A stretch of DNA of 64,000 bases from the NCBI GenBank assembly GCA_046347985.1, contig JAXMFE010000014.1, positions 26,042 to 90,041 of the forward strand, read 5' to 3'. This stretch comes from Burkholderiales bacterium (lineage in GTDB: Bacteria > Pseudomonadota > Gammaproteobacteria > Burkholderiales > Ga0077523). The notes under the pieces were generated by a model, which was given only the letters and a program-made list of their open reading frames with translations, was not told the origin of the DNA and searched no databases. Shown here piece by piece: positions 4,026 to 63,205 of the stretch. Made by a program: the position numbers and the translations under genes. The stretch's first letter is position 1, and each line of letters begins with the position of its first letter.

Positions 4026-5201
4026 ATGGAATTCGAAACCTGGTGGTTGTTGGCGCTCCCGCTGTTCTTTGCCCTGGGCTGGTTCGCCGCCCGTATCGAC
4101 ATCAAGCAGCTCGTCACCGAGTCCCGGCGCCTGCCCCATTCGTACTTCCGTGGCCTGAACTTCCTGCTCAACGAACAGCCCGACAAGGCCATCGAAGCCT
4201 TCATCGAGGTCGTGAAGGTCGAACCTGAGACCGTCGAGCTGCATTTCGCACTCGGCAATCTCTTCCGTCGGCGCGGAGAGCTGGAGCGCGCCATTCGCAT
4301 GCACCAGAACATCCTCGACCGCGAGGACCTCGGCCAGGAGCAGCGCCTGTCGGCCCTCTTCGAGCTGGGGCAGGACTACCTGAAGGCCGGTCTGCTGGAC
4401 CGCGCCGAGGAGATGTTCCAGCGCCTGATCGGCACGAACCTCGAGCAGCAGGGCCTGCGCTATCTGCTCGAGATCTACGAGCAGGAGAAGGACTGGCTCA
4501 AGGCGATCGAGACTTCCCGCAAGATGGACACGATCAGCGGCGAATCGAGTGCCAAGGACATCGCCCATTTCTATTGCGAGCTGGCCAGCGGGGAGATGCT
4601 CCACCAGCGTCTCGAGACCGCCCGCAAGTATGCGGACGAAGCCCTGGCGGTGAACCGCAAGTGCACGCGTGCCAGCATGATTCTCGGTGACGTCGAATGG
4701 CAGACCGGTCGCGTCGAGGAAGCCATCGAGACGTGGAAGCGCATCGAGGGGCAGAATCCCGCCTACCTCCCGCTGGTCGCCGATCGCCTGCTGGGTGCTC
4801 ACGCCAAGCTGGGGCGGCCGGAGCAGGGGCTGCAGTTGTTGAGCGGCTATCTCGCCAGTTATCCCTCGCTCGATCTGCTGCAGTCGCTCTACCAGGCGAC
4901 GCTGGAAGGGCAGGGCAGCGCGCCGGCATACGAACTCCTGCGCGACGAACTTCGCCGCAACCCCACGCTGGTCGGACTCAATCGATTGATCGAGATGCAA
5001 CTGGCGGACGCGGCTGCGGATCGTCGGGGCGACCTCGAACTCACGCGCAACCTGATCCAGCAGCATTCCCGCAGCTTGTCCTTGTACCGCTGCGACAGCT
5101 GCGGCTTCCGCGCCCGCCAGTTCTACTGGCATTGCCCCGCCTGCCATGCGTGGGAAAGCTACGTGCCGCGCCGAGCGGAAGAGCGAGAGATGGCGGCATG
5201 A
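4026..5201 (+). CDS. lapB: Lipopolysaccharide assembly protein LapB (TPR repeats plus C-terminal rubredoxin-like zinc finger)
   Basis: N-terminal TM helix, TPR-like repeats (LHFALGNLFRRRGELERAIRMHQ ...), and a C-terminal YRCDSCGFRARQFYWHCPACHAW CxxC...CxxC motif. Confidence 0.9.
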   Translation: MEFETWWLLALPLFFALGWFAARIDIKQLVTESRRLPHSYFRGLNFLLNEQPDKAIEAFIEVVKVEPETVELHFALGNLFRRRGELERAIRMHQNILDREDLGQEQRLSALFELGQDYLKAGLLDRAEEMFQRLIGTNLEQQGLRYLLEIYEQEKDWLKAIETSRKMDTISGESSAKDIAHFYCELASGEMLHQRLETARKYADEALAVNRKCTRASMILGDVEWQTGRVEEAIETWKRIEGQNPAYLPLVADRLLGAHAKLGRPEQGLQLLSGYLASYPSLDLLQSLYQATLEGQGSAPAYELLRDELRRNPTLVGLNRLIEMQLADAAADRRGDLELTRNLIQQHSRSLSLYRCDSCGFRARQFYWHCPACHAWESYVPRRAEEREMAA

Positions 5202-5256
5202 GCCACCCGGCGAGGGGCCCCAGCGTGCTGGGGATCGACGGCCAGGCGATTGCCGC
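5194..5256. repeat. Copy 1 of a 63-nt direct repeat with an internal hairpin (REP-like)
   Basis: cggcatgagccacccggcgaggggccccagcgtgctggggatcgacggccaggcgattgccgc. It contains the inverted repeat cccag-cgtg-ctggg. Copy 1 supplies the last codons and the TGA stop of lapB. Confidence 0.85.
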
Positions 5257-5307
5257 TGAGGCGCCGACGCGGAGAGGGAGCACGTTGCACGGAAGCGGAA
5301 GAGGCGA

Positions 5308-5370
5308 CGGCATGAGCCACCCGGCGAGGGGCCCCAGCGTGCTGGGGATCGACGATCAGGCGATTGCCGC
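5308..5370. repeat. Copy 2 of the 63-nt direct repeat (2 mismatches, 114-nt period)
   Basis: Same sequence as 5194-5256 except gc to at at positions 48-49 of the unit. It lies in the lapB-pyrF spacer. Confidence 0.85.
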
Positions 5371-5418
5371 CAGATCGCCCACCCGAGAACCATTCCCCGG
5401 CCTGGACGGCCTCACGAG

Positions 5419-6150
5419 ATGCACGCAATGAATGTCAACCACGATCCCCGCATCATCGTCGCCCTCGACTTCCCCTCCGGAGACGAGGCGCTCGCGTTCG
5501 CGAAGCGCTTGCCTCCGCGCGAATGCCGGGTGAAGGTCGGGAAGGAACTGTTCGTGAGCGCGGGCCCGGGGCTCGTGTCGGCGCTTCAGGTCGCCGGCTT
5601 CAGCGTCTTCCTCGATCTCAAGTTCCACGACATTCCCAACACGGTTGCGCAGGCCTGCACGGCGGCGGCGCGCCTGGGCGTGTGGATGGTCAACGTCCAT
5701 GCGCTGGGCGGGACGCGCATGCTGGCGGCGGCGCGTGAAGCGGTGGAGAAGTTCACCCATCGGCCCAAACTGATTGCGGTGACTGTGCTCACGAGCATGG
5801 CCTCGGAAGATCTCCGCGAACTCGGCCTGTCCGGGGATTCCGCCGGTGAGGTGGCGGTTCGTCTGGCGAGCCTCGCCAAGGGGGCAGGGCTCGACGGCGT
5901 GGTGTGTTCCGCTCAGGAGGCCAAGGCCATGCGCGCGGCTTTCGGCCCGGGATTCGACCTCGTGACGCCGGGCATCCGGCCTGCCGACGCGGATGCCGAT
6001 GACCAGGCGCGCATTGCGACGCCCGGTCGGGCGATTGCCGACGGCTCGAGCTATCTCGTGATCGGCCGTCCGATCACCCGGGCGCCCGATCCCGTGGCGG
6101 CGCTGCGGGGCATGATTGCGGAAGTCGAGGCGGCAGTCTCTCCTTCGTGA
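5419..6150 (+). CDS. pyrF: Orotidine 5'-phosphate decarboxylase
   Basis: IIVALDF ... KVGKELF ... [13 protein letters not shown] ... YLVIGRPIT are canonical OMP decarboxylase motifs. The start could also be ATG 5428. Confidence 0.93.
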
Positions 6151-25821: not shown

Positions 25822-26892
25822 ATGCGCACCGGGACCGAATCCCCGCCCCACCTGCAATCGCTTCCGACCCGCCGCCCGGCTCGCGGCGCCTTCCGTCCGT
25901 CGCTCTGCGCTCTCATCGGTGCCACGGCCATCGTCGCGACGGGCTGCGGAACCGTGCCGCGACCCGCGCCCATGCCCAAGCCCCACCCGTTGGGCGAGTC
26001 CTACGGGCAACTCTACGATCCCGCGAAATACGAGGCCTGCCGGCAGAAGACGCCGGGCGATTCCCGGTGCCGGAAATTCATCCTCAAACGCAACGAGAAC
26101 CCGGAGCTCTGGCCGTATCCGGACGTTCCTCCGATGAAGTGGCCGGACCCGCCCAAGGGGAGCGTCTACCGGCCGGGGATGACCGGTGTCGAGTACTGGC
26201 GCGCACTCTGCAAGGCCGAGGCCGGCGAGTTCATCTACAAGACCGTGGAGAACGTGGACGGGATCTATCAGATCCGACCCCGCCGACACGAGACGGACTA
26301 TGCGCTGATGGATCCGTATGTGGTCGAGGATCCGTATGGGCACACGATTGGGGAAGAGGATCAGGAGATCTTCTTTTCTTATGTGTACCCGAGGGAGCGT
26401 TGGGAACCGGACCTTGCGGGTTACTCGTATATGGAAAGCGCGCCGCTAGTCGAAGATGCGAAATCGACGTCTCCGGAGAGGCACTCGTCGCTAAGGCAAG
26501 CCCGATCGGAGAACACACGTTTCGAGCGCTATTTCGGATACGACAGAAGGTACGTGAACACAATGCGCATGGAGTGGACGGGTTCGTTGGCGAGCAACAT
26601 CGGCTTCACGTGGCGGGGGATTCGGCGAACGACGGACCGGGAGTTGGGCGTCGCCGGTGGCGAACTTGTTGTCGTCGATTTGCGCACAAACGAAGTACTC
26701 GGGTTACGACGAGGATTCGTTTTGGGTAGCAACCTCGATGAGGGCAGAACTGTTTGGAGTTGGAACGCGTGCCCCGAATACTCTGCAATGGATGGAAAAG
26801 GAAGGCGCCTCAAAAGAAACAAATACTTTGATTTCGGGCTTTGGTTCATTTCAAAAGTAGCTAAGCCGTCCGGACAGCGGTATCCCAAATGA
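25822..26892 (+). CDS. Hypothetical lipoprotein, translationally coupled to the RTX giant gene
   Basis: Lipobox-like LIGATAIVATGC after a basic N-terminus. No recognised domain. The stop TGA (26890-26892) overlaps the ATG (26889) of the next gene. The 3' third has distinctly lower GC. Confidence 0.65.
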   Translation: MRTGTESPPHLQSLPTRRPARGAFRPSLCALIGATAIVATGCGTVPRPAPMPKPHPLGESYGQLYDPAKYEACRQKTPGDSRCRKFILKRNENPELWPYPDVPPMKWPDPPKGSVYRPGMTGVEYWRALCKAEAGEFIYKTVENVDGIYQIRPRRHETDYALMDPYVVEDPYGHTIGEEDQEIFFSYVYPRERWEPDLAGYSYMESAPLVEDAKSTSPERHSSLRQARSENTRFERYFGYDRRYVNTMRMEWTGSLASNIGFTWRGIRRTTDRELGVAGGELVVVDLRTNEVLGLRRGFVLGSNLDEGRTVWSWNACPEYSAMDGKGRRLKRNKYFDFGLWFISKVAKPSGQRYPK

Positions 26893-29800
26893 GTGAAGTG
26901 GAGGAATTCTCAGGGGCGGCACTTCGGGCGCTCGAAGCTCAGCTCAGTGCGGATTCGTACTTGGTAGATGGAAGTGGGGTGCCTGTACAAGATCTGAGGG
27001 CCGCGTTGCGATCTGGGAACAACAACTTGGCGCCTTCAGTCCTTGTCGACGGAGTCCCGACTCAGAACGAATTGTTGATCTCAATTCCGACCGCAAGTCC
27101 TGATTCTCCGATACTGCCGGGCGCCACTCGTTTCCCAGTCTCACGGGCAGACCAGTTTGGGGCTTCAAGCGGCTATTCAGTTGTAACGCAAACCCTAAAC
27201 GACGCCACCGGCCTCTCCATCACCGTCCTTCGTTCGAACGCGGACCCCGGCGCCTACACGGTCGCCTTCCGCAGCAGCGAATTCCAGACGCAGCGCAACG
27301 GCGGCGATCGTGAGCGCGACATCTACGGCGCCGACATCGATATGCTGGAGCACGGATTCGCCTGGGGCCAACTGGCCGCGGCGGACCGTTGGCTGACGCA
27401 GGCGCGCGCGCCCGGTGGACTGCTCGCAGACGCGCAGTCGGTGACGCTGACGGGGTACTCCCTCGGCGGTCACATCGCGACGGTGATGACGGAGCTGCAC
27501 GCCGAGGACATCGCTTCGACTTGGGTCTTCAACGGTGCCGGACGTGGAGCGGTGGCGCCGGGTTACACGATCCGCGAACTGCTCGATGCCTACACCGCAC
27601 TGGTCGCGGATCCCGACGCGCGCATTCCCTGGTTGATCGCGCCGCGACCGTCCGACCCGATCTCGGAGGCAATGTTGCTTGCGGCCCGCCGGGAGTCCGG
27701 CAATCCCCTGTCGGACGGCAGGGCCACGCTGTACGAATCGGCCCGTCACCGGTGGGCCAACGCCGTTCTTGGTCCCTACGCGAGCGGTCTCGTGTTGTCG
27801 TCGTCGATCATCGATGACGCCATCGATCCGGTGGCCGACGCCAAGACGTACTACGTGTACGGGATGGCCACGCATCACGACGACACGATGACGGCGCTGA
27901 CCGGCATCGCGCCGACGGCGAACCGGATACGGGTGTTCATCGAGGACCAGCCGCTGTACTTCGGTCTCCAACTGGGGGTCTTCTCGTCGGCGGCGGAGAA
28001 GTTGAACAGCGACTTCATGCGCACGCACAGCATCACGCTGCTGGCGGATTCGCTGGCGCTCAGCCGCATCTTCGCGCGGGTGGACGAGGCGCTGACGCAG
28101 GACGGGATCGACACGATCTTCGCCATCGCCTCGAATCAGATCAGTCGGGCGGATTTCAATGCCAGCGCCGCAAGCGTCGAGGCGAATTCGCTGGAGAACG
28201 CGCTGGATGCGTTGCGCTGGGCGTTGCTTCCCGAGAGCGCCCTGGTCGGCAAGCGCACGACCGACTGGGATCCGAGCCCCGACGGCTTCGGCAATCTCGA
28301 CAACCGCAACCGGTTCTACGATCGGATCAACGAACTCGGTCTGCAACTCGACCGGACGGCCGGTACGCACTACACGATCACGCCGCTCGCCACGATGACG
28401 TGGAAAGGGGACACCGGATTCTCCGGATTCTTCACGCGGCAGACCGTCGCCTATGTCATCGGACGACCGTTGTCGCCTGCCGTGCTCGCGATGCGTGCGA
28501 AGGAAGATTCGTACGTCGGGGAGGCCTACCGGACGGCGCTGGAGAATCTCGCGCCGTTCGCGCTCGTGGCCGACCGGGCCATCTACGACCCGGCGAAGGT
28601 CGCGCTCGACCGGTTCTCCGAGCAGTACCTGAAGGACCGGGCCCTGTTCCTCTCCAAGCGCCTGGAGATGAACCTCGACAACAAGACGGCGCCCGGCGGG
28701 GCCGGTGTCATTCCCGTGTTCCTAGAAGATCGCGCGTCGGGGACGCGGATCGACTGGATCCGCAAGGAGCCGGACCGGCGCGGCACGGACAACCCCATTC
28801 ACGTCAAGTTCGGCCTCGACGACAACCCGGCGCTGGAGACCATCGACGGCGGCGGCAATGACGACCGGCTGTACGGACGAGGCGGCAACGATGTCCTCCA
28901 CGGTTTCGCGCTCAACGATCACCTGGAAGGCAACGAGGGCGACGACGAGTTGTGGGGCGGGTCGGGACGCGATGCGTTGCTCGGCGGACGGGGCGACGAT
29001 GTCCTGCACGGGGAATCGGGCAACGATGACCTCGATGGCGGCGCCGGCAGCGATTGGCTGTACGGGGGCGACGACAACGACCGTCTGACGGGCGGCAATG
29101 ACGACGACCGGCTGTTCGGCGGACGCGGATTCGATACGTACGTCGTCGGGTTCGGCAACGACACGATCGTGGACGACGGGGATGGCGGAACGATTCGGAC
29201 CGTCGCCGGGACGTCCGTCTCGGGCGCATTCGAGAAGCGCGGCGAGAGCTACGTTCTCCAGACCAACGGGTCCGTCACGGCGCGCCTGGAGGGGACGTCC
29301 CTGTGGGTATTTCTCGGCCCGCTCGGCAGCGTGCGCATCGACGGCTTCCGGAGCGGCGACCTGGGCATCACGCTGGTCGACGTTCCCGCCAAGGGGGCGA
29401 TGGCCCGCGGCTACGTGGGGGACTTCGTGCCCGTACCCGCGGGGGACGTGGGCTGGTTGCGGGACGAGTGGGGGAACGTGGTCGTCAGCACCGTGGCCGA
29501 GGACGGACGTCGGGACGAATACCTCGGATCGCCGTCGGACGATTCGATCTTCACCTACTTCGGACGGGACGTCGTGTCCGAGAGCTGGGGCGGCGACGAC
29601 GTCATCTCGCTCGGGTTCGACGACGACTCGGGGAGCGGCGGGAGCGGCAACGACACCGTTTCCGGCGATGCCGGGTGGGATGCGGTGGTCGGCGGAGACG
29701 GGGACGACCGCCTGTTCGGCGATCACGAGCGGTCCGTGGCCGACGCGATTGCCGCGGGCGTGCTGGCGGATCCGCGCTTCGCGGAGGCCGATTGGCTCGA

Positions 29801-53506: not shown

Positions 53507-53661
53507 CGCGATGCTGCGTGCGCATCCGTCCTGACGGCCCGTCGTCAACTTCGTTCCAGTCCTGCGCAAACGCGTCCTATCCCTTCCTTCGCCCGCGGTC
53601 CTAGCCTCGATGCCACGGTCCGTCGGCCGATTCGCCGGCGGCATGGGCGGGGAGGACGATC

Positions 53662-56001
53662 ATGGCGACAGGGGGAAGGCGCGGCGCAGCAGGCAAGGGC
53701 GGCGGCACGGCGGCGGATCGCAGCGAGGACGTCGAGGGACTGCTCCGGGATCTCGATCCGGAGGACCGCGAGGATGCGCAGAGCGGTGACTTCCGTTTCG
53801 GCCTCGAGGAACTCCTCAAGACCTACCGGCCGCTGATCGAGGAGGAGCTGAAGCGTTCCGACGAGGCCGAGGCGCTCGCGAAGGAGGCCATCTCCGTCGC
53901 GCCCACCTGCGAGGACGAGTACGCCGCGGCCCGGCAATTCATCGCGCGCTTCTTCACCGACGAGGTGGCGGTGCGCCTGTTGCCGCTGGCGGCGCGCGAA
54001 CTGCTCGGCAATCCCGAACGCTGGCGCTGGTGTCTCGCGCACATCCGCTGCTGCGTGATCTTCGGCTGGCTGCTGTGCCGCAAGCCGCGCACCTTCCGCG
54101 GCTCCAACTACTACCTCTACCGGTTCTGGCGCTGCGTGCGCGAGGCGGTGGGCTTCCCGCTGGGCACGACGCTCGGCGAGCGCGACCGGCAGGATTTCGC
54201 GCGACTCGTCCGGGCGCTGGCGGACGCCTACAAGCCCTATCTGACCGATCAGCTGGCCAGCGTCGATTTCCCCGAAGGCATCCCGGACGAGGTGCTCGCC
54301 GGCACGCTCGACTGCTTCAGCGACGAAGACGCCACCAGCGGCATCTTCGAGCGGCTGCTGTCGCCGGACATCGCACCGGCCCTGCTCGGCGAAGCCGCTT
54401 TCGAGAAGCATCGCCAGGACGCCTTCTTCTGGTTCTGCCGGTGCTGGTGCCTGTGCGCGATCCGGTTCGGGTGCTGCCTGGCCCGGGCGCGCAACCTGCG
54501 CGAGGCCGTGCGCTGCCTGCTGTTCTACCGGCGCTGCCTGCGGGATTGCCTGCAGCCCCTGCGCTGCGACCTCCAGCAGCCGACCGGCTGCGTGGCCGAG
54601 TCCGTGAACACGGATCTCGCGGCGCTCGTGGTGCCCGTCATCGGGACGGCGTCGGGCGGCATGTTCCACCACTATGTGCTCGAGTGGTCGCGCGACGGCG
54701 TCGCGTGGCATGCCGATTCGTTCTTCTACCCCCCGATTCCGCCGGGCAACGCCGTGCAGGGCAACACGGCGGTCAACAACGGCGTGCTCGCGTACTTCGA
54801 CACGAGCGCGATGGATCCCGGCTTCTACTTCCTGCGCATGACGGTCACATCGACGCAGGGGACGACGCGGGTGTGCCGGACGGAGTTCTCGCTCTTCAAG
54901 CAGGAGGTCCGGATCCTCAGCGTCGACGGCGCTGCGCTCGACACGGTGTGGTCCGATCCCGGGGCGCGCTTCGTCGAGAACGTTCCCGGCATCTGCGAGG
55001 ATCCGCCCGGCACCTGGAAGCGCGCACCCGGCGTCGAGGAGATGTCCTTCGGCGACTGCCTCTACCTCTACGGCGGCGCGTTCGTCGGCGGCTGCGACGG
55101 GCAGAGGATCAGGCGCTACATGATCGACACGAAGCCCGGGTTCGAGACCAACTGCTTCAGCGGCGGCTGGAGCAACGTCTGGAAGGTCGAGTACAACACG
55201 ATCTGGCAATACCGCGACATGAACCTGCGCAAGGACACCGCCAACCTCACGTCAGTCTGGGTGTCCGACTGCATCGTGCCCGTGCCGTTCCCCCCGTACT
55301 GCCTGCACTCGGAACCGCAGGCGCGGCTGGCGCCATCCTGCTGGCAGAGCCACACGGCCTTGTGCGTGGCCAGCGGCCTGTTCACGCTCCGCCTGATGGT
55401 CGAGGACACCGACGGCAACCTGTACTGCGACACGCAGCGTGTCTGGATCGACAACAAGCCGATCTGCGCCGCCATCCGCATCGACGCCGTGCCGAAGTGC
55501 GCCGACGTGAACGTGAGCGCATTCGCCGATCCGCCGGACTGCGGCACGCCGTGGCATCTGCCGCTGTCGGGCATCGCGTACGACGACTACATCGACGACA
55601 CGCTGCCGCTCACCCGGCCGAACGACAACTTCGACTACTACGTCGTGACGGTGACGAAGCAGGGTGGGCCGACCTTCACGATCCCCGTGTCGTTCGGACC
55701 GAGTTCCGCGTGCACCCAGGGGACCATGCGCGTCGGCAAGTGCGAGCCCTGCAATGCCCTCGATCCGCGCGCCGGCGACGTCTACGGATTGCTCGCCAAC
55801 TTCGATCTGCGTGCCGTGGACGACGTGTGCCAGGGGAGCCTGCCCTATCCGGTGCCCACCGGGTTCGCGCTGGCGCGCGGCGAGTGCTGCGTCTACGTGT
55901 TCGAGCTGACGGTGTACGACCGGACTGCGCGGTCGAGCGGCGTCAACTGGGCGCAGGCGAACTGGCCGGTGAAGATCTGCAACGACCTCAAGGCGCCGTG
56001 A
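53662..56001 (+). CDS. Cysteine-rich 779-aa hypothetical protein (Cys-cluster N-terminal region plus about three beta-sandwich-like modules)
   Basis: GGAGGA lies 6 nt before the ATG. There is no signal peptide. Cys clusters: CLAHIRCCVIFGWLLC and FFWFCRCWCLCAIRFGCCLA ... RCLLFYRRCLRDCLQPLRCD. The C-terminal modules show the pattern VIGTASGG..HHYVLEWS ... GVLAYFDTS ... GFYFLRMTV and GLFTLRLMVEDTDGN ... VWIDNKP, which is common in extracellular Ig-like domains. No family was recognised. Confidence 0.7.
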   Translation: MATGGRRGAAGKGGGTAADRSEDVEGLLRDLDPEDREDAQSGDFRFGLEELLKTYRPLIEEELKRSDEAEALAKEAISVAPTCEDEYAAARQFIARFFTDEVAVRLLPLAARELLGNPERWRWCLAHIRCCVIFGWLLCRKPRTFRGSNYYLYRFWRCVREAVGFPLGTTLGERDRQDFARLVRALADAYKPYLTDQLASVDFPEGIPDEVLAGTLDCFSDEDATSGIFERLLSPDIAPALLGEAAFEKHRQDAFFWFCRCWCLCAIRFGCCLARARNLREAVRCLLFYRRCLRDCLQPLRCDLQQPTGCVAESVNTDLAALVVPVIGTASGGMFHHYVLEWSRDGVAWHADSFFYPPIPPGNAVQGNTAVNNGVLAYFDTSAMDPGFYFLRMTVTSTQGTTRVCRTEFSLFKQEVRILSVDGAALDTVWSDPGARFVENVPGICEDPPGTWKRAPGVEEMSFGDCLYLYGGAFVGGCDGQRIRRYMIDTKPGFETNCFSGGWSNVWKVEYNTIWQYRDMNLRKDTANLTSVWVSDCIVPVPFPPYCLHSEPQARLAPSCWQSHTALCVASGLFTLRLMVEDTDGNLYCDTQRVWIDNKPICAAIRIDAVPKCADVNVSAFADPPDCGTPWHLPLSGIAYDDYIDDTLPLTRPNDNFDYYVVTVTKQGGPTFTIPVSFGPSSACTQGTMRVGKCEPCNALDPRAGDVYGLLANFDLRAVDDVCQGSLPYPVPTGFALARGECCVYVFELTVYDRTARSSGVNWAQANWPVKICNDLKAP

Positions 56002-56014
56002 AGCGGGGCACGTC

Positions 56015-56419
56015 ATGGGCGAGGGCTTGGACGGCCCCGGTGTCTGGCCGGCGCTCGCCCTGACGTCGTTTGCCGTCTGGCGCGTCTCGCACCTGCTCGC
56101 CAACGAGGACGGTCCGGGTCACCTGATCCTGCGGCTGCGCGTCCGGCTCGGCGACGGGTGGGCGGGCACGCTGCTCGACTGCTTCCATTGCGTGAGCCTG
56201 TGGGTGTCCGCGCCGTTCGCGCTGGCTCTCACGCGGGATCCGCTGGAGTGGGTCGTGGCGTGGTTCGGCGTGTCCGGGGTGGCGTGCGTGCTCGAGCGGG
56301 TGTCGGGGCGGACCTTGGCCGCCGGGGGCATGCGAACCGACGAAGGAGAGGATGACCATGGGATGTTGTGGACAGGGGCGTCAGGCGCTCCGGAGGGAAC
56401 CCGACCCGGGGAGCCGTGA
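56015..56419 (+). CDS. DUF1360-like membrane protein with a CxxC motif
   Basis: FAVWRVSHLLANEDGP ... GTLLDCFHCVSLWVSAPFAL resembles the DUF1360 pattern (L..C.WC...W.A). About 3 TM helices. Confidence 0.6.
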   Translation: MGEGLDGPGVWPALALTSFAVWRVSHLLANEDGPGHLILRLRVRLGDGWAGTLLDCFHCVSLWVSAPFALALTRDPLEWVVAWFGVSGVACVLERVSGRTLAAGGMRTDEGEDDHGMLWTGASGAPEGTRPGEP

Positions 56420-56669
56420 ACGGTCGTCGGCGCGGGCAGTGGTCTCGCGGCCGGTACCGGGATCCGGGGCGTCGCGGTCGGCACCGTCGGCGCCGGCCCG
56501 GGGTGCGCTTCGCGTGCGCTACCTGGCGAGCAGTCCGGTCCGGGTGGTCGGCGCGGTCACCGGGCAGCGCTATGACTTCTCCGGGGAGCGCCCGGAGCAG
56601 GCGGTGGACGCCCGGGACGCCGCCGTCCTGCTGGCCACGCCGCACTTCGCGCGCTCGCCGCGAATGTGA
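56358..56669 (+). CDS. Small hypothetical protein starting MGCCGQG
   Basis: AAGGAGAG lies 7 nt before ATG 56358. There is a 62-nt overlap with the preceding gene. It has a disordered middle and a C-terminal LRVRYLASSPVRVVGAVTGQRYDFSGERPEQAVDARDAAVLLATPHF module. Confidence 0.5.
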   Translation: MGCCGQGRQALRREPDPGSRERSSARAVVSRPVPGSGASRSAPSAPARGALRVRYLASSPVRVVGAVTGQRYDFSGERPEQAVDARDAAVLLATPHFARSPRM

Positions 56670-56751
56670 GCCGGTCGGGAACCCGGCGCCGGCGAAGGGA
56701 GTCCATCGGACTCGGCAGTACAACAGGTTGGGTCGGGGGTGGGAGTGCGGG

Positions 56752-57585
56752 ATGCGCGACCTGATCGTCGTATGGGTGGACTTGCGGACGAATGCCCACG
56801 ATCCGAGTCCGGTGCCGGTGGCGGCCGCGGGCCTCCGGCTCGCGTGCGTCCGCACCTCCTCGGCGATCGACGACGTGCTGGCGGCGGTCACGGAACGCGG
56901 GGTCCTGTGTTTCGAGTTCGACACGCCCGACCGGCCGGGGCTGCTGGCGCTGGCCGCGGCCAAGGTCCGGCGCCCCTCGATGCCCATCCTGATGCTCACG
57001 GAATCGCACTCCGAATCGCTCGCGGTGTGGGCATTGCGGGCGCGTGTGTGGGACTACCTGGTCGCCCCGGTCGGGGTCGACGGGCTGCGCGAGCGTCTGC
57101 GCGCCCTCGACACGATCGCCGACGCCATGTGCGGGCGCGTCAATGCCTGCCCGGTGCCGCCGCTGCCCCCCGAGGTTCAGGTCCGCGCGCGACGCATCGC
57201 CACGGCCACGCGGGCCGCGCACGAGTACCTCCAGGCGCACTTCAACGAGCCGCTCGGGACGCGGAAGATGGCCGAACGGTGTCATCTCAGCACGTCGGAG
57301 TTCTGCCGCGCCTACAAGCGGGAACACGGCATCCCGTTCGGCGAATCGGTGCTGCGGCAACGGGTGGCGGCCGCCCGTGAATTGCTGGGCTCGCCGCAGG
57401 CCGTGATTTCCGACGTCGCCTGCGCCGTGGGATTCAACGATCCGTCGTATTTCTCGCGGGTGTTCCGACGTTTCACCGGAATGTCCGCCTCGGCCTACCG
57501 GCTCGCGTGCCTGACCCGCGGCCGCGTGCCGGAGGGGTCGGGCCCGGTCCTGCACGGCCTCGCGATCGGGGGCGAGATCGGCTGA
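56752..57585 (+). CDS. AraC-family transcriptional regulator with an N-terminal receiver-like domain
   Basis: The N-terminus is CheY-like (VLCFEFDTPDRPGL ... MPILMLTES ... VWDYLVAPV, with the conserved Lys position replaced by Ala). The C-terminal HTH_18 reads RKMAERCHLSTSEFCRAYKREHG ... DVACAVGFNDPSYFSRVFRRFTGMSASAYR. Confidence 0.85.
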   Translation: MRDLIVVWVDLRTNAHDPSPVPVAAAGLRLACVRTSSAIDDVLAAVTERGVLCFEFDTPDRPGLLALAAAKVRRPSMPILMLTESHSESLAVWALRARVWDYLVAPVGVDGLRERLRALDTIADAMCGRVNACPVPPLPPEVQVRARRIATATRAAHEYLQAHFNEPLGTRKMAERCHLSTSEFCRAYKREHGIPFGESVLRQRVAAARELLGSPQAVISDVACAVGFNDPSYFSRVFRRFTGMSASAYRLACLTRGRVPEGSGPVLHGLAIGGEIG

Positions 57586-57591
57586 TCCGGC

Positions 57592-58932
57592 TCAGCTCGA
57601 ACTCGGCGGGGCCGTGCGTCCTGCGACGGCCTGGAGGGCGCGATCCAGCACCTCCCGATTCCACGGAACGAAGTCGTAGTGCGCCCGCACGACGGGCAGG
57701 TTCGGGCGGATCAGGGTGGCCAGATCGATGGGGGTCCCGGCGATGACGACTTCCGCACGCGAATCGTCGATCGTCGCGCGCAACGCCTCGCGGTCCGCCG
57801 GGCTGTAACCCACCGCCGGCAGGACGACACCGAGGTGCGGATAGGCGCGATACAGGGCCTCGATCTCCGGCGCCGCGCTCTCGCGCGGATCGATGATCCG
57901 GCCGACCTCCGCGGCGAGTGCTGCCGCGAAGCCGGCGCCGGTGGACATGCCGCCATGGGTGAGGGTGGGGCCGTCGTCGACGACCATCACGCGCTTGCCG
58001 CGCACCGCCTCGGGCTGATCGAGGTAGACGACCGAGGCGCCCCGGACGATCTCCGCGAGCGGATTGAGGCGGCGGATCGTCCGCTCCATGCGGGCCGGGC
58101 CGTCTCCCGGCGCGGCGTTGGCCTTGTTGACGATGACGATGTCCGCCATCCGCACATTGGTCTCGCCGGGATGATGCGTGTCGATCTGATCCGGGCGCAG
58201 CGCATCCGTGACCACCAGGTGCAGGTCGGGGCGCAGGAACGGGAAATCGTTGTTGCCGCCTTCCCAGAGCAGGACGTCCGCTTCCGCCTCGGCCGCGGCG
58301 AGGATGGCGGCGTAGTCGACTCCGGCGAACACCACGTGTCCGGCGGCCAGATGCGGTTCGTATTCCTCCCGCTCCTCGGCCGTGCAGTCGGCGCGCGTCA
58401 GGTCGTCCCGGGTGGCGAAGCGCTGTACGGCCTGTCGGCCGAGATCGCCGTAGGGCATCGGATGGCGCAGCACCGCCACCCGGACGTCGCGTTCGGAACA
58501 CCAGTTCGAGACCCAGCGCGCGATCTGCGACTTGCCGCAACCGGTGCGCACCGAGGAGATGGCGATCACGGGACAGTGGGCGCGGAGCATCGTCCGCTCC
58601 GGACCGAGGAGCGTGAAGTCGGCGCCCGCGGCGAGCGCGCGCGACGCGAGATGCATGACGTCCGGGTGCGAGGTGTCGCTGTAGGCGAAGACCACCTCGT
58701 CCACGCGGTGGGAGCGGCACAGGCCCTCGAGGTCGGCTTCCGGCAGGATCGGGATGCCGTCCGGGTACAGCGGACCGGCCAGCGATGCGGGGTAGTGCCG
58801 ACCCGCGATGCCCGGAATCTGGGTGGCCGTGAAGACGACCACCTCGTGGACGGCCGATTCGCGGAACACGACGTTGAAGTTGTGGAAGTCGCGTCCGGCG
58901 GCTCCCAGGATCAGGACACGGCGGCGGTTCAT
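57592..58932 (-). CDS. COG2403-type predicted GTPase/cyclic 2,3-diphosphoglycerate-synthetase-like protein
   Basis: MNRRRVLILGAAGRDFHNFN ... VIAISSVRTGCGKSQ (P-loop-like) ... LWEGGNNDFPF ... VIVNKAN. The ATG overlaps the upstream stop (ATGA). Confidence 0.7.
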   Translation of the reverse strand: MNRRRVLILGAAGRDFHNFNVVFRESAVHEVVVFTATQIPGIAGRHYPASLAGPLYPDGIPILPEADLEGLCRSHRVDEVVFAYSDTSHPDVMHLASRALAAGADFTLLGPERTMLRAHCPVIAISSVRTGCGKSQIARWVSNWCSERDVRVAVLRHPMPYGDLGRQAVQRFATRDDLTRADCTAEEREEYEPHLAAGHVVFAGVDYAAILAAAEAEADVLLWEGGNNDFPFLRPDLHLVVTDALRPDQIDTHHPGETNVRMADIVIVNKANAAPGDGPARMERTIRRLNPLAEIVRGASVVYLDQPEAVRGKRVMVVDDGPTLTHGGMSTGAGFAAALAAEVGRIIDPRESAAPEIEALYRAYPHLGVVLPAVGYSPADREALRATIDDSRAEVVIAGTPIDLATLIRPNLPVVRAHYDFVPWNREVLDRALQAVAGRTAPPSSS

Positions 58933-59741
58933 GGGGGGCTCCGGAGGTGGGGGCGCGAGGGCGCGGGTTTCGCCCGGACGGGGCGCGACGGGCGGGCGGT
59001 GTCGACGACGACGAGATAGCGTCCGGACCACGGGGTGGGTTGCCACGCGTCGTTCAGCACCCGGGGCGAGCGGCCGGCCAGGCGCGCCTGCTCGTAGTCC
59101 GCATCGAGAATGCCGTATCGATCGAGAAACACGTTCATCGCGGCGGGAATGCGCACGCATCCCTTCGAGCACGCCGATCCCAGCTTCGGCTCCAGCCGCG
59201 CCGGATCGGTGGCGTGCAGCTGCAGGCGCAATTCGCCCGGGTGGCGGTCTCCCCAGCCGCGCGGCGCGGTCACCCACCCGAAATCGAACACGCGCAGCCC
59301 GCGCTCGCCGTACCCGCGGATGCCCTGCTCGTTGCGCGTGCCCTCGGCGCGGAAGTCCGGGTTGGCGACGCTGTGGTCGAACACGCCGAGCGGCGTCTCG
59401 AAGGACTCGTAGCGTCCCGGCTTGCCGGTGGAACAGGGGGACGCGCCGATGAACCGGAGGCTGCCGCTGCCCGACTGCCAGTAGACGAAGGCCGCCTGCA
59501 CCTTGGGCGCACGGTCGACGATCAGGAAGAACTGCGAGGCGAGCGGCCACAAGTCATGCGCCCGCAAGCTGTCCCTCAGCAATCCCGCATAGCGCGCCTG
59601 TTCCGCGTCGGGCACGGCGAGACGGCGATCCACTTCCCGCTCGTACAGATCGCGGTAGGCATCGGCATCGCCGGCGGCGAGGGCATGCGTCGACGCAAGA
59701 AGCAGGGCGGCGGCCGCCCATCGACGGGACGCGGGAATCAT
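58929..59741 (-). CDS. L,D-transpeptidase (YkuD) family protein
   Basis: Signal peptide AAAALLLASTHALAAG. Catalytic region LQLHATDPARLEPKLGSACSKGCVRIP (H...S-x-G-C-V-R). Confidence 0.8.
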   Translation of the reverse strand: MIPASRRWAAAALLLASTHALAAGDADAYRDLYEREVDRRLAVPDAEQARYAGLLRDSLRAHDLWPLASQFFLIVDRAPKVQAAFVYWQSGSGSLRFIGASPCSTGKPGRYESFETPLGVFDHSVANPDFRAEGTRNEQGIRGYGERGLRVFDFGWVTAPRGWGDRHPGELRLQLHATDPARLEPKLGSACSKGCVRIPAAMNVFLDRYGILDADYEQARLAGRSPRVLNDAWQPTPWSGRYLVVVDTARPSRPVRAKPAPSRPHLRSPP

Positions 59742-60529
59742 CAGCGGACGAGGACGGCCGTGCATGGCAGGGTATCGAGCGCGGCATCGAGCGAACCGTC
59801 CTGCGGGCTTGCGCCGGCGGACGGCAGCACGACGACGTCGTGGCGTCCCGCCCCGGCCAGGGCGGCGAGCGGTGCAGGGTTTGCGTCGGATTCGATCACC
59901 ACGCGCACGGGCATGGCCGCCGACGGCAGGCGCGCGCGGACCCAGCCCAGGGCCGTGGCGGTGGCCTGTCGTGACGGATCCGGCACCACGACGACGAGGC
60001 GCGACCGGTCGGATCGCGCCAACGCCGCAGCCAGACGCAATGCCCGCTCGCCGGCGGGCGTCTCCGTCTCGATGCGGACGATCACCTGGGGCGGGACATG
60101 CGGCGCCGACGTCGCGGGCGATGCGGGCGCCCGGCGCGGCGGGACCAGCACGACATCGACGGCGGGCGCCTTGCGGCGGACTTCGGCGTCGAACCGGCCG
60201 CGCCGCGTCTCGAAGGTGCAGACGAAGCGGTGTTCGACGGCCAGGCGGCGCAGGTCGCGCTCCATCTGGCGGGCCGCCGACTGCAGGGCCCGCTCCACGT
60301 CGTCCGTCAGGATCGCGCGCGAGATGCCCGACGTGCGACCGACTTCGCGCGTGAACGGCAGCGCCGCGAGGTGGAGCAGATCCAGGTCCTCCACGAACAG
60401 CGCGTCCACGGCGAGGTCCTGCCCCTCGACGAGCGTGGCCAGGATCCTGCGTACGCCGTTGCCCGTCCACGCGGACGACACCGCGAGCAGGAGACGACCG
60501 GGCGCCGCAGGATCGCGCGTTTCCGGCAT
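59741..60529 (-). CDS. Hypothetical protein, possibly a tandem universal-stress-protein-like fold
   Basis: Two halves each show a USP-like strand-helix pattern (RLLLAVSS ... LFVED and IVRIETETPAGERALRLAAALA ... LVVVVP). The stop overlaps the next start (TGATG). Confidence 0.4.
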   Translation of the reverse strand: MPETRDPAAPGRLLLAVSSAWTGNGVRRILATLVEGQDLAVDALFVEDLDLLHLAALPFTREVGRTSGISRAILTDDVERALQSAARQMERDLRRLAVEHRFVCTFETRRGRFDAEVRRKAPAVDVVLVPPRRAPASPATSAPHVPPQVIVRIETETPAGERALRLAAALARSDRSRLVVVVPDPSRQATATALGWVRARLPSAAMPVRVVIESDANPAPLAALAGAGRHDVVVLPSAGASPQDGSLDAALDTLPCTAVLVR

Positions 60530-60535
60530 GTCGGT

Positions 60536-63043
60536 TCAGCCCTTCCGGCCGGGCTTGGGCACGGGCTCGGGTTCCGGTGCGGGCGCCGCCCGCGACCGCT
60601 CCCTGACCCGCTTGATGCGCACGGCCATGTTCGAGAACGCCTGACGCATGACGGACAGCTCCAGCAGCCGGGCGGAGACGAGGAAGTTGAGCGTGCCTTC
60701 GGGGAAGACGCCGTCCTCGTCGGCCGCGCCGGCCGGGATGCCGGTCAGCAGCGTCGCGGCATCGTCGACGTGCTCGACGGGATGGACGTGGAAGCGGCCT
60801 GCCGCTGCGGCCTCGACCACGTCCTCCCGCAGCATCAGGTGTTTCACGTTCGCGGCGGGGATGACCACCCCCTGGTCGCCGGTCAGGCCGCGCGCGACGC
60901 ACAGGTCGAAGAAGCCTTCGATCTTCTCGTTGACGCCCCCGATGGGTTGCACCCGGCCGTGCTGGTTCACGGACCCCGTCACCGCGAAGCACTGGCGGAT
61001 CGGCACGTTCGCCAGCGACGAGAGCAGCACGACCAGTTCGGCCAGGGAGGCACTGTCACCCTCGACCTCGCCGTAGGTCTGCTCGAAGGCCAGGGTGCCG
61101 GACAGCGACTGCGGCCGGTCGGACGCGTAACGCGAACTGAGGAAGGCGGCCAGGGTCATCACGCCCTTCGCGTGGATGGGGCCGCCGAGTTGCACTTCGC
61201 GATGGATGTCGATGACCTCGCCGTCGCCGAGCCGCGTCGTGGCGGTGATGCGCGTCGGATGACCGAAGCGCGAGCGGCCGATCTCGCTGACCGACAGGCC
61301 GTTGATCTGCCCGACCGCGGCGCCGTCCGTGTCGATGAGGATCGTGCCGCGGACGATGCCTTCGAGCAGCCGGGCGCGGATGCGGCCGACCCGGCGTTCC
61401 CGCGCGTCGAGGGCGCTGCGCACGTGGGCGAGCGAGACGTGCGGCGCACCCGCTTCGCGGGCCCGCAGGTCGGATTCGCGCAGCAGGTCGCGGAGCGCTT
61501 CGATCTGCGTCGACAGGCGCTCGGCATCCTCGGCATCGCGGGCCGCCTCGTCGACGAGGCGGGCGACGGCATCGCGCGCGAAGGGCAGCAGCGTGTCCCT
61601 CCGGGCGAGCGTGGCGATCAGGCGGGCGTAGAGGATCTCGCTGTCCGCGCTGCGCGGCAGCTCGTCCTCGAAGTCGGCGGAGACCTTGAACAATTCCTCG
61701 AACTCGGGATCGAGCGCGAGCAGCAGGTAGTACACGGCCCGCTCCCCGACCAGCACCACCTTCACGTCGATCGGGATGGGCTCGGCGTCGAGGGCGATGG
61801 TCGAGACCCACCCGAGGCTCTGCCCCATGGTCTCCGGCCGCAAACGGCCGGTCGCGAGCGCGCGCTTGAGTCCGTCCCAGGCGAAGGGCTGCTGGAGCAG
61901 CTTGTGCGCATCGAGGACGAGATAGCCGCCGTTGGCCCGGTGCAGGGCGCCGGGCTGGATCAGGGCGAAATCGGTGATCAGCATCCCGAGCCGCGCCATG
62001 TTCTCGATGCGGCCGATCAGGTTCGGGAAGGTCGGGTATTCCTCCACCACGACCGGCGCCCCGCCGCCGCCGGGCTCGCTGCCGACGAGCACGTTCACTT
62101 CGTAGCGCCGGAACGCCAGGTCGTCGTCCAGGGCCATCGCGATCGGGTTGCCTTCCTGCGGCTCGGGGGCGCGCCGGAACTGGTCGATGGTCTCGAGCAC
62201 GTCGGCCTGGACGGCATCGAGGAACGACTGCACGCCGGCCTCCGCCGGAAACCTGGCCTTGACTTCGATGGTGAGCGCGCCCACGACGGTGAGCGTCATC
62301 TCCCGCGTGAGCTCCTTGATGGCGTTGCGCTTGGCCTTCTGCAGCGATTGCGCCTCCCGCACGGCCACCTGCAGCTTCTCGTGCAGGGACTCCATGCGTT
62401 CCTGGATGGCATGGCGGCGTTCCTCGGGCAGGGCCTGGAAATCCTCCGGGCTGATGACCTGGTTGTCGCGCATCGGCGCGAACGAGAAGCCGGCCGGCGT
62501 GTGGATCAGGGCGATGTCGTCCTTGGCGGACTCGCCGCCGAGCTCGCCGAACAGGCGCTCCTGCTGGCTCGAGTAGTCGGTGTCGATCTGCTCGGCGCGC
62601 GAGCGGAACTCGTCGCTTTCCAGCACGGCCGGAATCGAGGCGCGGAGTTCCTCCACGTATTGACGCATCTCCGACCGCAGACGCGTGCCTTCGCCGGGAG
62701 CGAGCTTCAACGCCCGCGGACGATTGGGCGCCTCGAAATTATTGACGTAGCACCAGTCGGCCGGCGGCGGATCGGACTTCGCCCGTTCGCGCAGCACTTC
62801 CTCGACGAGGCCGCGCTTGCCCACGCCGGCCGGACCGAGCATGAAGACGTTGTAGCCGCGCGATCGCATGCGCATCGCGAGGTCCAGCGCCTCGCGCGCG
62901 CGGTCCTGACCCACGATCGACGGGAGATCCGCCAGATCCGCGGTCGTCGAGAAGGCGGCATCGTCGAAGGTCGCGTGGCGGCGCAGAGCCGACGACGGCA
63001 AGGCGGGGGGCAGGCGGACGGGCGACGGTTTCTTGCGGGCCAT
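60536..63043 (-). CDS. Lon-family protease with an AAA+ module carrying a long helical insertion (LonC-like)
   Basis: Walker A MLGPAGVGKRGL, a long coiled insertion, then a C-terminal S16 domain (GDSASLAELVVLLSSLANVPI ... TGSVNQHGRVQPIGGVNEKIEGFF) with Ser-Lys dyad context. Start taken at MARKKP (63043). Confidence 0.85.
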   Translation of the reverse strand: MARKKPSPVRLPPALPSSALRRHATFDDAAFSTTADLADLPSIVGQDRAREALDLAMRMRSRGYNVFMLGPAGVGKRGLVEEVLRERAKSDPPPADWCYVNNFEAPNRPRALKLAPGEGTRLRSEMRQYVEELRASIPAVLESDEFRSRAEQIDTDYSSQQERLFGELGGESAKDDIALIHTPAGFSFAPMRDNQVISPEDFQALPEERRHAIQERMESLHEKLQVAVREAQSLQKAKRNAIKELTREMTLTVVGALTIEVKARFPAEAGVQSFLDAVQADVLETIDQFRRAPEPQEGNPIAMALDDDLAFRRYEVNVLVGSEPGGGGAPVVVEEYPTFPNLIGRIENMARLGMLITDFALIQPGALHRANGGYLVLDAHKLLQQPFAWDGLKRALATGRLRPETMGQSLGWVSTIALDAEPIPIDVKVVLVGERAVYYLLLALDPEFEELFKVSADFEDELPRSADSEILYARLIATLARRDTLLPFARDAVARLVDEAARDAEDAERLSTQIEALRDLLRESDLRAREAGAPHVSLAHVRSALDARERRVGRIRARLLEGIVRGTILIDTDGAAVGQINGLSVSEIGRSRFGHPTRITATTRLGDGEVIDIHREVQLGGPIHAKGVMTLAAFLSSRYASDRPQSLSGTLAFEQTYGEVEGDSASLAELVVLLSSLANVPIRQCFAVTGSVNQHGRVQPIGGVNEKIEGFFDLCVARGLTGDQGVVIPAANVKHLMLREDVVEAAAAGRFHVHPVEHVDDAATLLTGIPAGAADEDGVFPEGTLNFLVSARLLELSVMRQAFSNMAVRIKRVRERSRAAPAPEPEPVPKPGRKG

Positions 63044-63205
63044 GGGCGCCGGAGGACGGTCGAGGATGCCGCGATGTTGCCCCGTAACCGCCCGTCCCGC
63101 CAGCATCCGTCACGCGATCGACCGGCAGGCCGGATTCGTTGACCGATGTCAAAGCCCGGATGCAGACGTCCGCGCACTCTGGTTCGAAGAAGAAGGAGAG
63201 GCACC

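Follow-up and report, generated by a model that had tools for sequence, protein, structure and literature searches.

What do three neighbouring bacterial genes do, whose products are marked by conspicuously placed cysteine residues and to which no characterised function can be assigned? The question is raised by a 64,000-nucleotide stretch of DNA from a Burkholderiales bacterium (GTDB lineage Bacteria; Pseudomonadota; Gammaproteobacteria; Burkholderiales; Ga0077523; NCBI GenBank assembly GCA_046347985.1, contig JAXMFE010000014.1, positions 26,042 to 90,041 of the forward strand), which as a whole will be called the window and whose first letter is position 1 of all coordinates given here without a locus number. 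On its forward strand the window encodes, one after the other, a large Cys-rich protein of 779 amino acids (53662-56001; a GGAGG precedes the ATG and the TGA stop codon lies at 55999-56001), a DUF1360-like membrane protein of 134 amino acids with three hydrophobic segments (56015-56419), a small protein of 103 amino acids starting with MGCCGQG (56358-56669) and an AraC-type regulator (56752-57585). The large and the membrane protein genes are separated by 13 nucleotides, the membrane and the small protein genes overlap by 62 nucleotides, and 82 nucleotides lie between the small protein gene and the regulator. An initial annotation, made from the letters of the sequence alone, had described these four same-strand open reading frames (ORFs) together with their gaps and overlap, exactly to the base, and had seen in them one cysteine-centred cluster, which might serve thiol or disulfide chemistry, metal handling or a covalently cross-linked assembly. 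Following up this description computationally, we find that the first three genes form a real, widely conserved and functionally unexplained unit, for which we tentatively propose a role in cysteine chemistry at the cytoplasmic side of the inner membrane.

A three-gene unit in more than ten phyla

A long ORF in GC-rich DNA may be the mere shadow of another reading frame, a possibility that had been considered for the large gene from the beginning. This candidate explanation was ruled out by the GC content at the third codon position (GC3), by the competing ORFs and by hundreds of homologs. GC content by codon position in the large ORF is 0.63/0.49/0.92, with GC3 ranging from 0.86 to 0.97 in every 300-nucleotide segment, so that the gene passed the coding-potential test, and it is the ORFs overlapping it in other frames that display the shadow pattern (GC content at the first codon position of about 0.9, GC3 of 0.5-0.64). 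GC3 amounts to 0.87 in the membrane protein ORF, 0.83 in the small ORF and 0.89 in the regulator; across the overlap and the small gene, GC3 alone is ambiguous between two frames, and there it is homology that decides the frame.

Loci were surveyed using one genome per GTDB species, which returned 80 loci, and the partner genes were sought with hidden Markov models built from five seed pairs and scanned against all six-frame ORFs of these loci. The order large, DUF1360-like, small on one strand was found in about 70 of the 80, several of the exceptions being contig ends, and the membrane protein gene without the small gene was encountered at no locus away from contig ends. The carriers are distributed over more than ten phyla in all, comprising Beta-, Alpha- and Deltaproteobacteria, Acidobacteriota (many), Verrucomicrobiota, Chloroflexota, Nitrospirota, NC10/Methylomirabilota, Rokubacteria, Actinobacteriota, Gemmatimonadota, Bacteroidota and Deferribacteres, and include the cultured organisms Massilia glaciei, Rugamonas rubra ATCC 43154, Pelomonas sp. 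Root1444, Neoroseomonas soli and Albitalea terrae. The nearest relatives of the large protein of the window are found in Candidatus Accumulibacter (70% identity). All-against-all clustering of the flanking ORFs revealed no fourth recurrent gene; regulators, two-component genes and others occur sporadically. The three genes are thus a co-inherited unit, and the co-occurrence on which the initial annotation had made its interpretation depend is there.

Architecture of the large protein

The large protein contains 38 Cys residues in its 779 amino acids (4.9%). Its family is compact and sharply delimited: a collection of 5.8 billion proteins yielded more than 513 full-length homologs of 52-71% identity, which are either unnamed or labelled 'hypothetical' and lack Pfam domains throughout, and when 1.84 billion cluster representatives were scanned exhaustively with HMMER, 206 clusters only were returned. 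No family match was obtained in Pfam, NCBIfam, PADLOC or PHROGs, and a PDB sequence search with the single large-protein sequence gave nothing meaningful. None of the four proteins of the locus matched a known anti-phage defence component in PADLOC. The initial annotation could not assign any of the first three genes to a characterised function; neither could we, after searches of family databases, the PDB and the literature.

According to an AlphaFold2 (AF2) model based on a 56-sequence alignment (mean predicted local distance difference test score, pLDDT, of 86.6 over the full length), a disordered acidic N-terminus is followed by an all-helical part (approximately residues 17-296) and an all-β part (residues 301-779). 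The helical N-domain is an internal tandem duplication. Its first repeat (53779..54159, forward strand, residues ~40-166) ends in the hairpin H118-140/H145-162 with C124, C130, C131, C139 and C158, and its second (54169..54561, forward strand, residues ~170-300) in the hairpin H254-275/H279-296 with a palindromic Cys motif; aligned with each other by hhalign, residues 40-166 and 170-300 match with a probability of 99% (E 1.7e-17, 26% identity). Modelled alone, the N-domain reaches a pLDDT of 88.8 and a predicted template modelling score of 0.85, and Foldseek found no fold match for it in the PDB (best E 0.3, TM <0.25). The Cys clusters first noticed in hydrophobic and aromatic stretches of this protein (CLAHIRCCVIFGWLLC, FFWFCRCWCLCAIRFGCCLA and RCLRDCLQPLRCD) are all found in the translation, as is LLDCFHCVSLW in that of the membrane protein. 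Since Cys-rich helical hairpins make up the ends of the two repeats, these clusters are better understood as helices of a confidently predicted, duplicated globular domain; the clustering of Cys holds, but not the picture of loose membrane strings.

The remainder of the protein (54562..55998, forward strand; 20 Cys) is an Ig-like (immunoglobulin-like) β-sandwich module according to the DSSP assignment of the AF2 model. The Ig-like character had been recognised correctly, but instead of about three separate modules we find one contiguous tandem module, which can be read as roughly four sandwiches. Foldseek comparison of the full-length model with the PDB and BFVD resulted in generic tandem Ig/FN3-like matches only (E 1e-8 to 1e-5, TM-scores 0.1-0.2), and those of the β-module are RTX-adhesin repeats, SiiE, cadherins, S-layer proteins and phage or viral tail proteins. 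The tandem Ig-like β-sandwiches that characterise adhesins and S-layer proteins are therefore present in the large protein, with E 1e-7 to 1e-5 against RTX-adhesin repeats, SiiE, cadherins and S-layer proteins, albeit at TM-scores of 0.1-0.2.

Where would such a protein reside? None of 200 homologs has a signal peptide, a Tat motif, a lipobox or a C-terminal secretion signal of a known kind. The N-terminus had been described as acidic and devoid of a signal peptide, and indeed the protein possesses no N-terminal hydrophobic segment: within the first 250 residues, no 19-residue window exceeds a Kyte-Doolittle value of 1.4, which leaves nothing that would qualify as an export signal, and the N-terminus, which is acidic, non-hydrophobic and predicted to be disordered, is likewise free of one across 40 aligned homologs. 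Some distant relatives have only the β-module in common with the large protein. In a group of proteins that includes P0196 and P0206, two strongly hydrophobic helices with positive flanks on both sides take the place of the helical domain, and because of these flanking charges the helices are predicted to form a membrane hairpin, with the β-module remaining on the cytoplasmic side. These transmembrane-hairpin variants contain 7-13 Cys only, and P0196 (L091, L092), the sole one of them with its locus examined, has neither partner gene nearby. Two further variants, P0146 and P0174, carry four repeats of the Cys-rich helix C-x3-C-x-W-L-C-x-W-x-C-x-R-V-C-x2-L-C; one short contig with a protein of this type shows no partners within 850 bp. 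None of the variants has a signal peptide. Taken together, the variants suggest that the β-module acts at the cytoplasmic side of the membrane and that the partners go with the Cys-rich helical domain, and the large protein itself would thus be located in the cytoplasm.

Paired cysteines

If the arrangement of the Cys residues has a meaning, it should be recognisable in their fate among relatives. This was followed in 201 full-length homologs, the kinship of which was handled by a rough nearest-relative grouping only. Each of the 18 Cys of the helical domain is conserved in at least 95%, and even at 39% identity homologs retain 16-18 of them; those of the β-module, 20 in number, turn over among homologs. 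The turnover is paired. C498 and C589 occur together in 132 homologs, are both missing in 69 and never stand alone (at least seven independent events), C742 and C773 are both present in 194, both missing in seven and single in none (at least five events), and C265 and C292 are found together in 196 and were lost together by substitution in four, again with no single occurrence (at least four events). For C139 and C271, 190 homologs with both and seven with neither face one or two with a single Cys (at least two independent events); C124/C259 show paired turnover in at least three independent events, and that of C83/C218, C560/C602 and C445/C684 is similar. Paired loss or gain also speaks for C568/C627, whereas C130/C158, C261/C296, C272/C285 and C302/C310 are candidate pairs suggested by helix geometry or by their common invariance. 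The total number of Cys is even in 149 homologs and odd in 52 (115 and 23, respectively, among called proteins), the modes being 36, 38, 34 and 40. The shared Cys theme proposed at the outset is hence seen in Cys that co-vary in pairs and in counts that are mostly even.

A further regularity is present in the second helical hairpin (H254-275/H279-296), the Cys motif of which is palindromic: C261-x3-C265-x6-C272 ... C285-x6-C292-x3-C296. The position sums 261+296, 265+292 and 272+285 all equal 557, which corresponds to three rungs with a/d-like spacing in a predicted antiparallel hairpin, and this hairpin thereby displays the mirror-image Cys arrangement that defines the twin-CxnC hairpins. In the β-module, C742 and C773 are situated at opposite far ends of a β-hairpin of the AF2 model. 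Vicinal Cys-Cys pairs are found at C130/131, C271/272 and C742/743 of the large protein and at C3/C4 of the small protein. As known from twin-CxnC proteins and from even-count statistics, disulfides typically reveal themselves by an even number of Cys, by Cys gained and lost in twos and by hairpins with mirror-image motifs, a combination that counts as their textbook signature. The 38 Cys would most probably make up about 19 pairs, acting as disulfide staples. Among the possibilities initially listed (thiol/disulfide chemistry, metal, cross-linking), the statistics favour paired, disulfide-like Cys, with which metal bridging is still compatible.

The membrane protein and the small CCGQ protein

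The membrane protein reaches 25.9 bits against the Pfam profile DUF1360 (PF07098; gathering cutoff 21), covering profile positions 51-100 of 102, and is therefore a member of this family, as are 38 of 39 homologs of the membrane protein (best E 1.7e-8). It shares with DUF1360 the small polytopic build, here with three hydrophobic segments, and the motif C-x-x-C-x-S-x-W. Invariant in the homolog alignment are W22, R23, D32, G33, P34, R42, G51, D55, C56, C59, S61, W63, W83, G88 and C91. The pair C56-x-x-C59 (56180..56191, forward strand) opens the second hydrophobic segment, with the invariant D55 before and S61 and W63 after it, and C91 (56285-56287, forward strand) is the third invariant Cys. 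Lys and Arg count 0 in the N-terminus, 3.9 in the first and 0.9 in the second loop, and 1.9 in the tail, and by the positive-inside rule this distribution predicts an N-out/C-in topology. D55-C56-x-x-C59, C91, H26, E31 and D32 would consequently meet at the cytoplasmic interface, and the predicted location of the CxxC, at the start of segment 2, is the same side as that of the signal-less client and small protein.

Apart from DUF1360 and phrog_781, searches in Pfam, NCBIfam and PHROGs gave nothing for the membrane protein. There is no Pfam match to a DHHC domain (zero matches besides DUF1360), no D-H-H-C motif in the alignment, and no Pfam similarity to Lgt, Lnt or MBOAT. No literature was found on the function of DUF1360/PF07098 or on the sequence motifs of the module. 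A DUF1360 membrane protein with C-x-x-C-x-S-x-W is also encoded by Rhodococcus phage ReqiPine5 (gp09; L093 2965-3288), just 5' of head-morphogenesis genes, and because it keeps the motif, the CxxC seems to be a hallmark of the whole family including its phage members. R23, D32, R42 and C-x-x-C-x-S-x-W are common to gp09 and the protein of the module, whereas C91 is missing in the phage protein. The subfamily of the module adds the invariant C91 and an E-D-G-P motif to a family whose function has not been described, and it is always paired with the CCGQ protein.

This small protein had been said to begin exactly with MGCCGQG behind a well-placed Shine-Dalgarno sequence, which can be confirmed: AAGGAG (56343-56348, forward strand, as read from the sequence) lies inside the 3' end of the membrane protein gene, and the ATG at 56358 follows 9 nucleotides past it. 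An alternative in-frame ATG at 56352 was rejected, being too near to the Shine-Dalgarno sequence and mismatching the consensus start of the family. The N-terminal M-G-C-C-G-Q-G-R (Cys codons 56364-56369, forward strand) is succeeded by an Ala/Pro/Ser-rich linker (~56382-56507, forward strand) and a conserved C-terminal domain (~56508-56666, forward strand). All of the 71 distinct homologs start with M(x)CCGQ[K/N/G]R, with G, S, A, P, T or no residue at x; C3, C4 and G5 are invariant, Q6 and R8 are conserved in at least 90%, and 67 of the 71 contain exactly two Cys. The linker varies between 15 and 80 amino acids and consists to 56% of Ala, Pro, Ser and Thr, and the basic C-terminal domain of about 50 residues follows the pattern LRYLE.SPI.VRGP.TGR.Y.FS...PVQ.VD.RDA..LL.T.FFRR. 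A profile search collected 219 homologs, all of them stand-alone proteins of about 100-120 amino acids and none with a Pfam domain. We found no relative of the small protein in the PDB or Pfam, no homology to the large protein and no signal peptide.

Is the small ORF perhaps only a by-product of a conserved tail of the membrane protein? The tail motif 'GMLRxE' (56340-56419) is an out-of-frame image of MGCCGQKR in the 62-nucleotide overlap, and its apparent conservation is a clear case of one gene casting its shadow on another that overlaps it. At loci without overlap (L004, L069, L066) CCGQ is kept and the GMLRxE tail is gone, which rules out the by-product explanation; because CCGQ persists there while the tail motif vanishes, selection acts on the frame of the small protein.

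A possible thiol-disulfide relay and its alternatives

How might the three proteins work together? We propose that the three-gene core, the AraC regulator excluded, would act on cysteines where the inner membrane faces the cytoplasm. The large protein, made without a signal peptide and carrying two Cys-rich hairpins at its centre and the tandem Ig-like module after them, would be the product or client. The DUF1360-like protein would be a thiol oxidoreductase of the membrane, small and polytopic, with its D-C-x-x-C and third Cys at the cytoplasmic interface, and the small protein would serve as a swinging-arm carrier, whose C-terminal domain may dock on the large protein and whose flexible Ala/Pro-rich linker would allow the vicinal Cys-Cys to travel back and forth between client and membrane protein. 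In short, the core may be a self-contained thiol-disulfide relay serving a disulfide-stapled, membrane-proximal protein, a reading that we regard as possible, somewhat short of probable. It draws support from the Cys residues of the partners (C56, C59 and C91 of the membrane protein, C3 and C4 of the small protein), which sit where a relay needs them, and from the partners tracking Cys richness, as the Cys-poor hairpin variant (one locus examined) has neither of them. What the data show directly are the anatomy, the co-inheritance, the pairwise behaviour of the Cys and the lack of a known family; the location in the cytoplasm, the disulfide nature of the pairs and the direction and nature of the relay we infer. 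A more far-reaching version, in which many phyla would possess a cytoplasm-facing oxidative-folding pathway with DUF1360 as a new type of thiol oxidase, inverted relative to DsbB/VKOR, a flexible-arm Cys-Cys carrier and about 19 disulfides, appears rather unlikely to us.

Several points speak against a relay. Mesophilic bacteria rarely have stable structural disulfides in their cytoplasm, and vicinal Cys-Cys disulfides are strained and rare. Neither a redox cofactor domain nor a thioredoxin fold is present in the module; the membrane protein has three hydrophobic segments, not four, and its profile, compared with all PDB chain sequences (E up to 10), revealed no similarity to DsbB, VKOR or CcdA. 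Four loci (L018, L073, L076, L081) encode a large protein with 36-38 Cys and contain neither partner gene inside 6 kb, and at two others (L040, L055) the small gene is present and the membrane gene missing. To this must be added the roughness of the kinship grouping behind the Cys statistics, as well as the near-invariance of the 18 N-domain Cys, which would be expected of a functional centre, metal or redox, more than of plain staples.

The last point leads directly to the main rival, a module for soft metals or metalloids (Cu(I), Hg(II), As(III), Cd(II)), in which the Cys triad of the membrane protein would pass a thiophilic ion across or along the membrane, the Cys-Cys arm would be a metallochaperone and the helical domain would store or sequester the ion, in the manner of MerT/MerP to MerA, of ArsD to ArsA or of the Csp copper storage bundles. 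Near-invariance of 18 Cys throughout the family is what ligands would show, all evidence on location points to the cytoplasm and hence to a reducing environment, and four vicinal Cys-Cys pairs occur in the large and small proteins. Vicinal Cys pairs are typical of proteins handling Hg and As (MerA, MerT, ArsD), and in size and helix count the membrane protein presumably resembles MerT, to which it shows no Pfam match. What makes this explanation doubtful to us is that Pfam and NCBIfam contain no match to MerT, HMA, Csp (DUF326), ArsD or other metal families, that no MerR-, ArsR- or CsoR-type regulator or efflux pump recurs beside the module, and that the surroundings are housekeeping genes and not resistance islands; the Cys of the β-sandwiches, moreover, are gained and lost strictly in twos, at distant positions and with even totals, unlike sites with three to four ligands. 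The same paired turnover is left unexplained by S-acylation and tethering, according to which the membrane protein would be an acyltransferase with a Cys/His/Asp site that lipidates the Cys-Cys of the small protein, possibly also the Cys-rich helices of the large protein, so that the small protein would tether the large one via its C-terminal domain. The M-x-C-C start with its basic residues resembles eukaryotic palmitoylation sites, a resemblance only; the palmitoylation site of GAP-43 reads MLCCMRR. In front of CC there is always G, S, A, P or T, or no residue at all, so that the initiator Met can be removed, the conserved H26, E31, D32, D55, C56, C59, C91 and R95 are predicted to gather at the cytoplasmic interface, and variants with a hairpin of their own are Cys-poor and, at the one locus examined, lack the partners, as expected if these supply the anchoring. 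Nevertheless, similarity to DHHC, MBOAT, Lgt or Lnt is missing, the invariant G5 and Q6 and the strict Cys positions of the large protein are atypical of fuzzy acylation strings, and AF2 buries the Cys-rich helices with high confidence in a globular domain, and we judge S-acylation to be improbable.

Disulfide-like pairing and tandem Ig-like domains are also typical of extracellular proteins, and the top Foldseek matches are adhesin repeats, cadherins and S-layer proteins. The large protein could accordingly be thought of as an extracytoplasmic, disulfide-rich surface or matrix protein, adhesin- or S-layer-like, which exits non-classically (by a holin-like role of DUF1360, by lysis or in vesicles) and is oxidised outside by Dsb, the more so as DUF1360 also occurs in actinophages as small membrane proteins. 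This, too, we hold to be improbable: those Foldseek matches are generic (TM-scores 0.1-0.2), 200 homologs are without export signal and the small partner without signal peptide, the hairpin variants are predicted to hold the β-module in the cytoplasm, and the module is not accompanied by linked genes for a secretion system, for lysis or for a cell-wall hydrolase.

Comparison with known systems

The module works most like a DsbB/DsbA, VKOR or Mia40/Erv1 relay and is a member of none of them, since every test of family definition that sequence or fold allows turned out negative; only two family memberships hold, that of the membrane protein in DUF1360 and that of the accessory regulator in AraC. 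The likeness to DsbB/DsbA and VKOR consists in a small polytopic protein with an invariant CxxC at a helix end and a further Cys, encoded beside a soluble protein with a Cys pair, and in a client full of Cys pairs. In contrast to DsbB and VKOR, however, three helices are predicted instead of four and the CxxC is predicted to be cytoplasmic, not periplasmic, and unlike DsbA, the soluble partner has no thioredoxin fold and bears its vicinal Cys-Cys on a disordered arm. With Mia40/Erv1 the module would share a client lacking a classical signal peptide and a dedicated relay, as proposed here, but it has neither a Mia40-like CPC protein nor an Erv/ALR flavin domain. Palindromic Cys on the arms of antiparallel helical hairpins are known from small Tim proteins (twin Cx3C), CHCH proteins (twin Cx9C) and plant α-hairpinins. 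The module, on the other hand, is bacterial, its hairpins lie inside a 260-residue duplicated domain with many further Cys, and its disulfides are predicted.

Metal-binding systems offer similar partial likenesses. The copper storage proteins Csp1 and Csp3, Cys-lined four-helix bundles of which the latter is cytosolic, resemble the helical domain in having many Cys on neighbouring helices that face each other, whereas Pfam DUF326 is not matched (E up to 0.1), no PDB fold match including the Csp entries was obtained, and the helical domain of the module is fused to an Ig-like module and accompanied by two dedicated partners. MerT/MerP-MerA and ArsD-ArsA are comparable in a three-helix membrane protein of about 120 amino acids with Cys and in vicinal Cys on flexible arms that hand over the ligand; the module differs from them in the lack of homology, of a mer- or ars-type regulator, of a reductase, of a pump and of a resistance island. 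In our rating, no described kind of system accommodates the module, even though the genes themselves are already in the databases as hypothetical proteins.

The AraC regulator and the genomic surroundings

The regulator belongs to AraC/XylS with 68.5 bits to HTH_18 (cutoff 33.6) and 48.6 bits to HTH_AraC (cutoff 26.6). Its receiver had been called atypical, in agreement with the 22.3 bits to Response_reg (PF00072), which remain below the cutoff of 30.2 and do not qualify it for this family. Asp (FEFD) and Thr (LMLT) are present, and the conserved Lys-Pro is replaced by Ala-Pro (LVAPV), so that the N-terminal domain appears to be receiver-like but degenerate. An ortholog of 48% identity occupies the same position in the Candidatus Accumulibacter loci, and regulators of similar architecture adjoin the triad at L055 and L088. 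The regulator is confined to the Accumulibacter-like lineage, these two analogous loci aside, and in most other lineages none is found beside the triad; it was thus added locally and stands outside the core, and its inclusion in the cluster by the initial annotation had to be given up.

Scans for a conserved promoter or terminator gave nothing informative. About 75-105 nucleotides 5' of the ATG of the large gene (53555-53590) we observed the element TTCCA(G/A)TC-N17-CTA(T/A)C, whose spacing is the same in the window and in three Candidatus Accumulibacter loci, the remaining intergenic region having diverged; a sigma-70 consensus scan missed it. It may represent a promoter or operator.

The genomic settings of the module are housekeeping, not resistance islands, and in the window too the genes around the triad are unrelated housekeeping genes. 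Phage genes flank the module at none of the loci, and a phage origin was rejected on these grounds, weak phage relatives being found for the DUF1360 protein only. Downstream of the regulator, the reverse strand of the window carries a 446-amino-acid ORF with only a weak match to CobW/HypB/UreG-type nucleotide-binding proteins (57592-58932), an adjoining YkuD L,D-transpeptidase-like ORF with an apparent N-terminal signal sequence (~58929-59765), a 262-amino-acid ORF without any Pfam match (59741-60529) and, preceding the latter, a LonC/LonB-like AAA+ protease of 856 amino acids (60536-63106; AAA_32, LonC_helical, Lon_C). Far from the module, at 26001-27000, the GC content dips to 0.574 (0.62-0.75 elsewhere) with a GC skew of +0.146, which may mark an RNA gene or foreign DNA.

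Particular neighbours were noted in single lineages. In Bryobacteraceae (L005 11127-12996, equal to L006 5223-7092, and L044), a 71-amino-acid ORF, an enzyme of the MbnB/TglH/ChrH family (DUF692, PF05114) and a 243-amino-acid partner lie directly 3' of the triad, in a layout like that of a bufferin or methanobactin-like cluster for a Cys-modifying peptide, and an ECF (extracytoplasmic function) sigma factor and a 153-amino-acid ORF are found divergently upstream. This DUF692 cluster could be a coincidence or a second Cys- or copper-related system. In Bryobacterales (L004 2497-7244 and 11167-18232, equal to L033), the triad stands among seven genes for SpoIIE/PP2C phosphatases and, in addition, partner-switching genes of the STAS and HATPase_c_2 types, with a gene for a ferritin-like DUF2383 protein just 5' of it, a setting which may hint at stress-response control in that lineage. 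At the partner-less locus L076 of a Geobacter sp., a LuxR-type helix-turn-helix regulator (5095-5730) immediately precedes the large gene on the same strand, a further case of a regulator joined to this gene in one lineage.

Significance

Two of the three proteins described here stand outside every family of Pfam, NCBIfam, PHROG, PADLOC and PDB, and the third is a domain of unknown function. In the large protein, features come together which are rarely combined, namely the lack of an export signal, some 19 co-evolving Cys pairs and a helical domain, predicted with confidence, without structural relative. Should its pairs be disulfides made at the cytoplasmic side, the module would represent a new bacterial oxidative-folding machinery and a natural route to intracellular disulfide-rich proteins; should they bind metal, it would be a metal store of new architecture, equipped with an importer and a chaperone of its own. 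An inverted thiol oxidase, if true, would be the first function for DUF1360, phage members included, and either reading gives this family a testable role.

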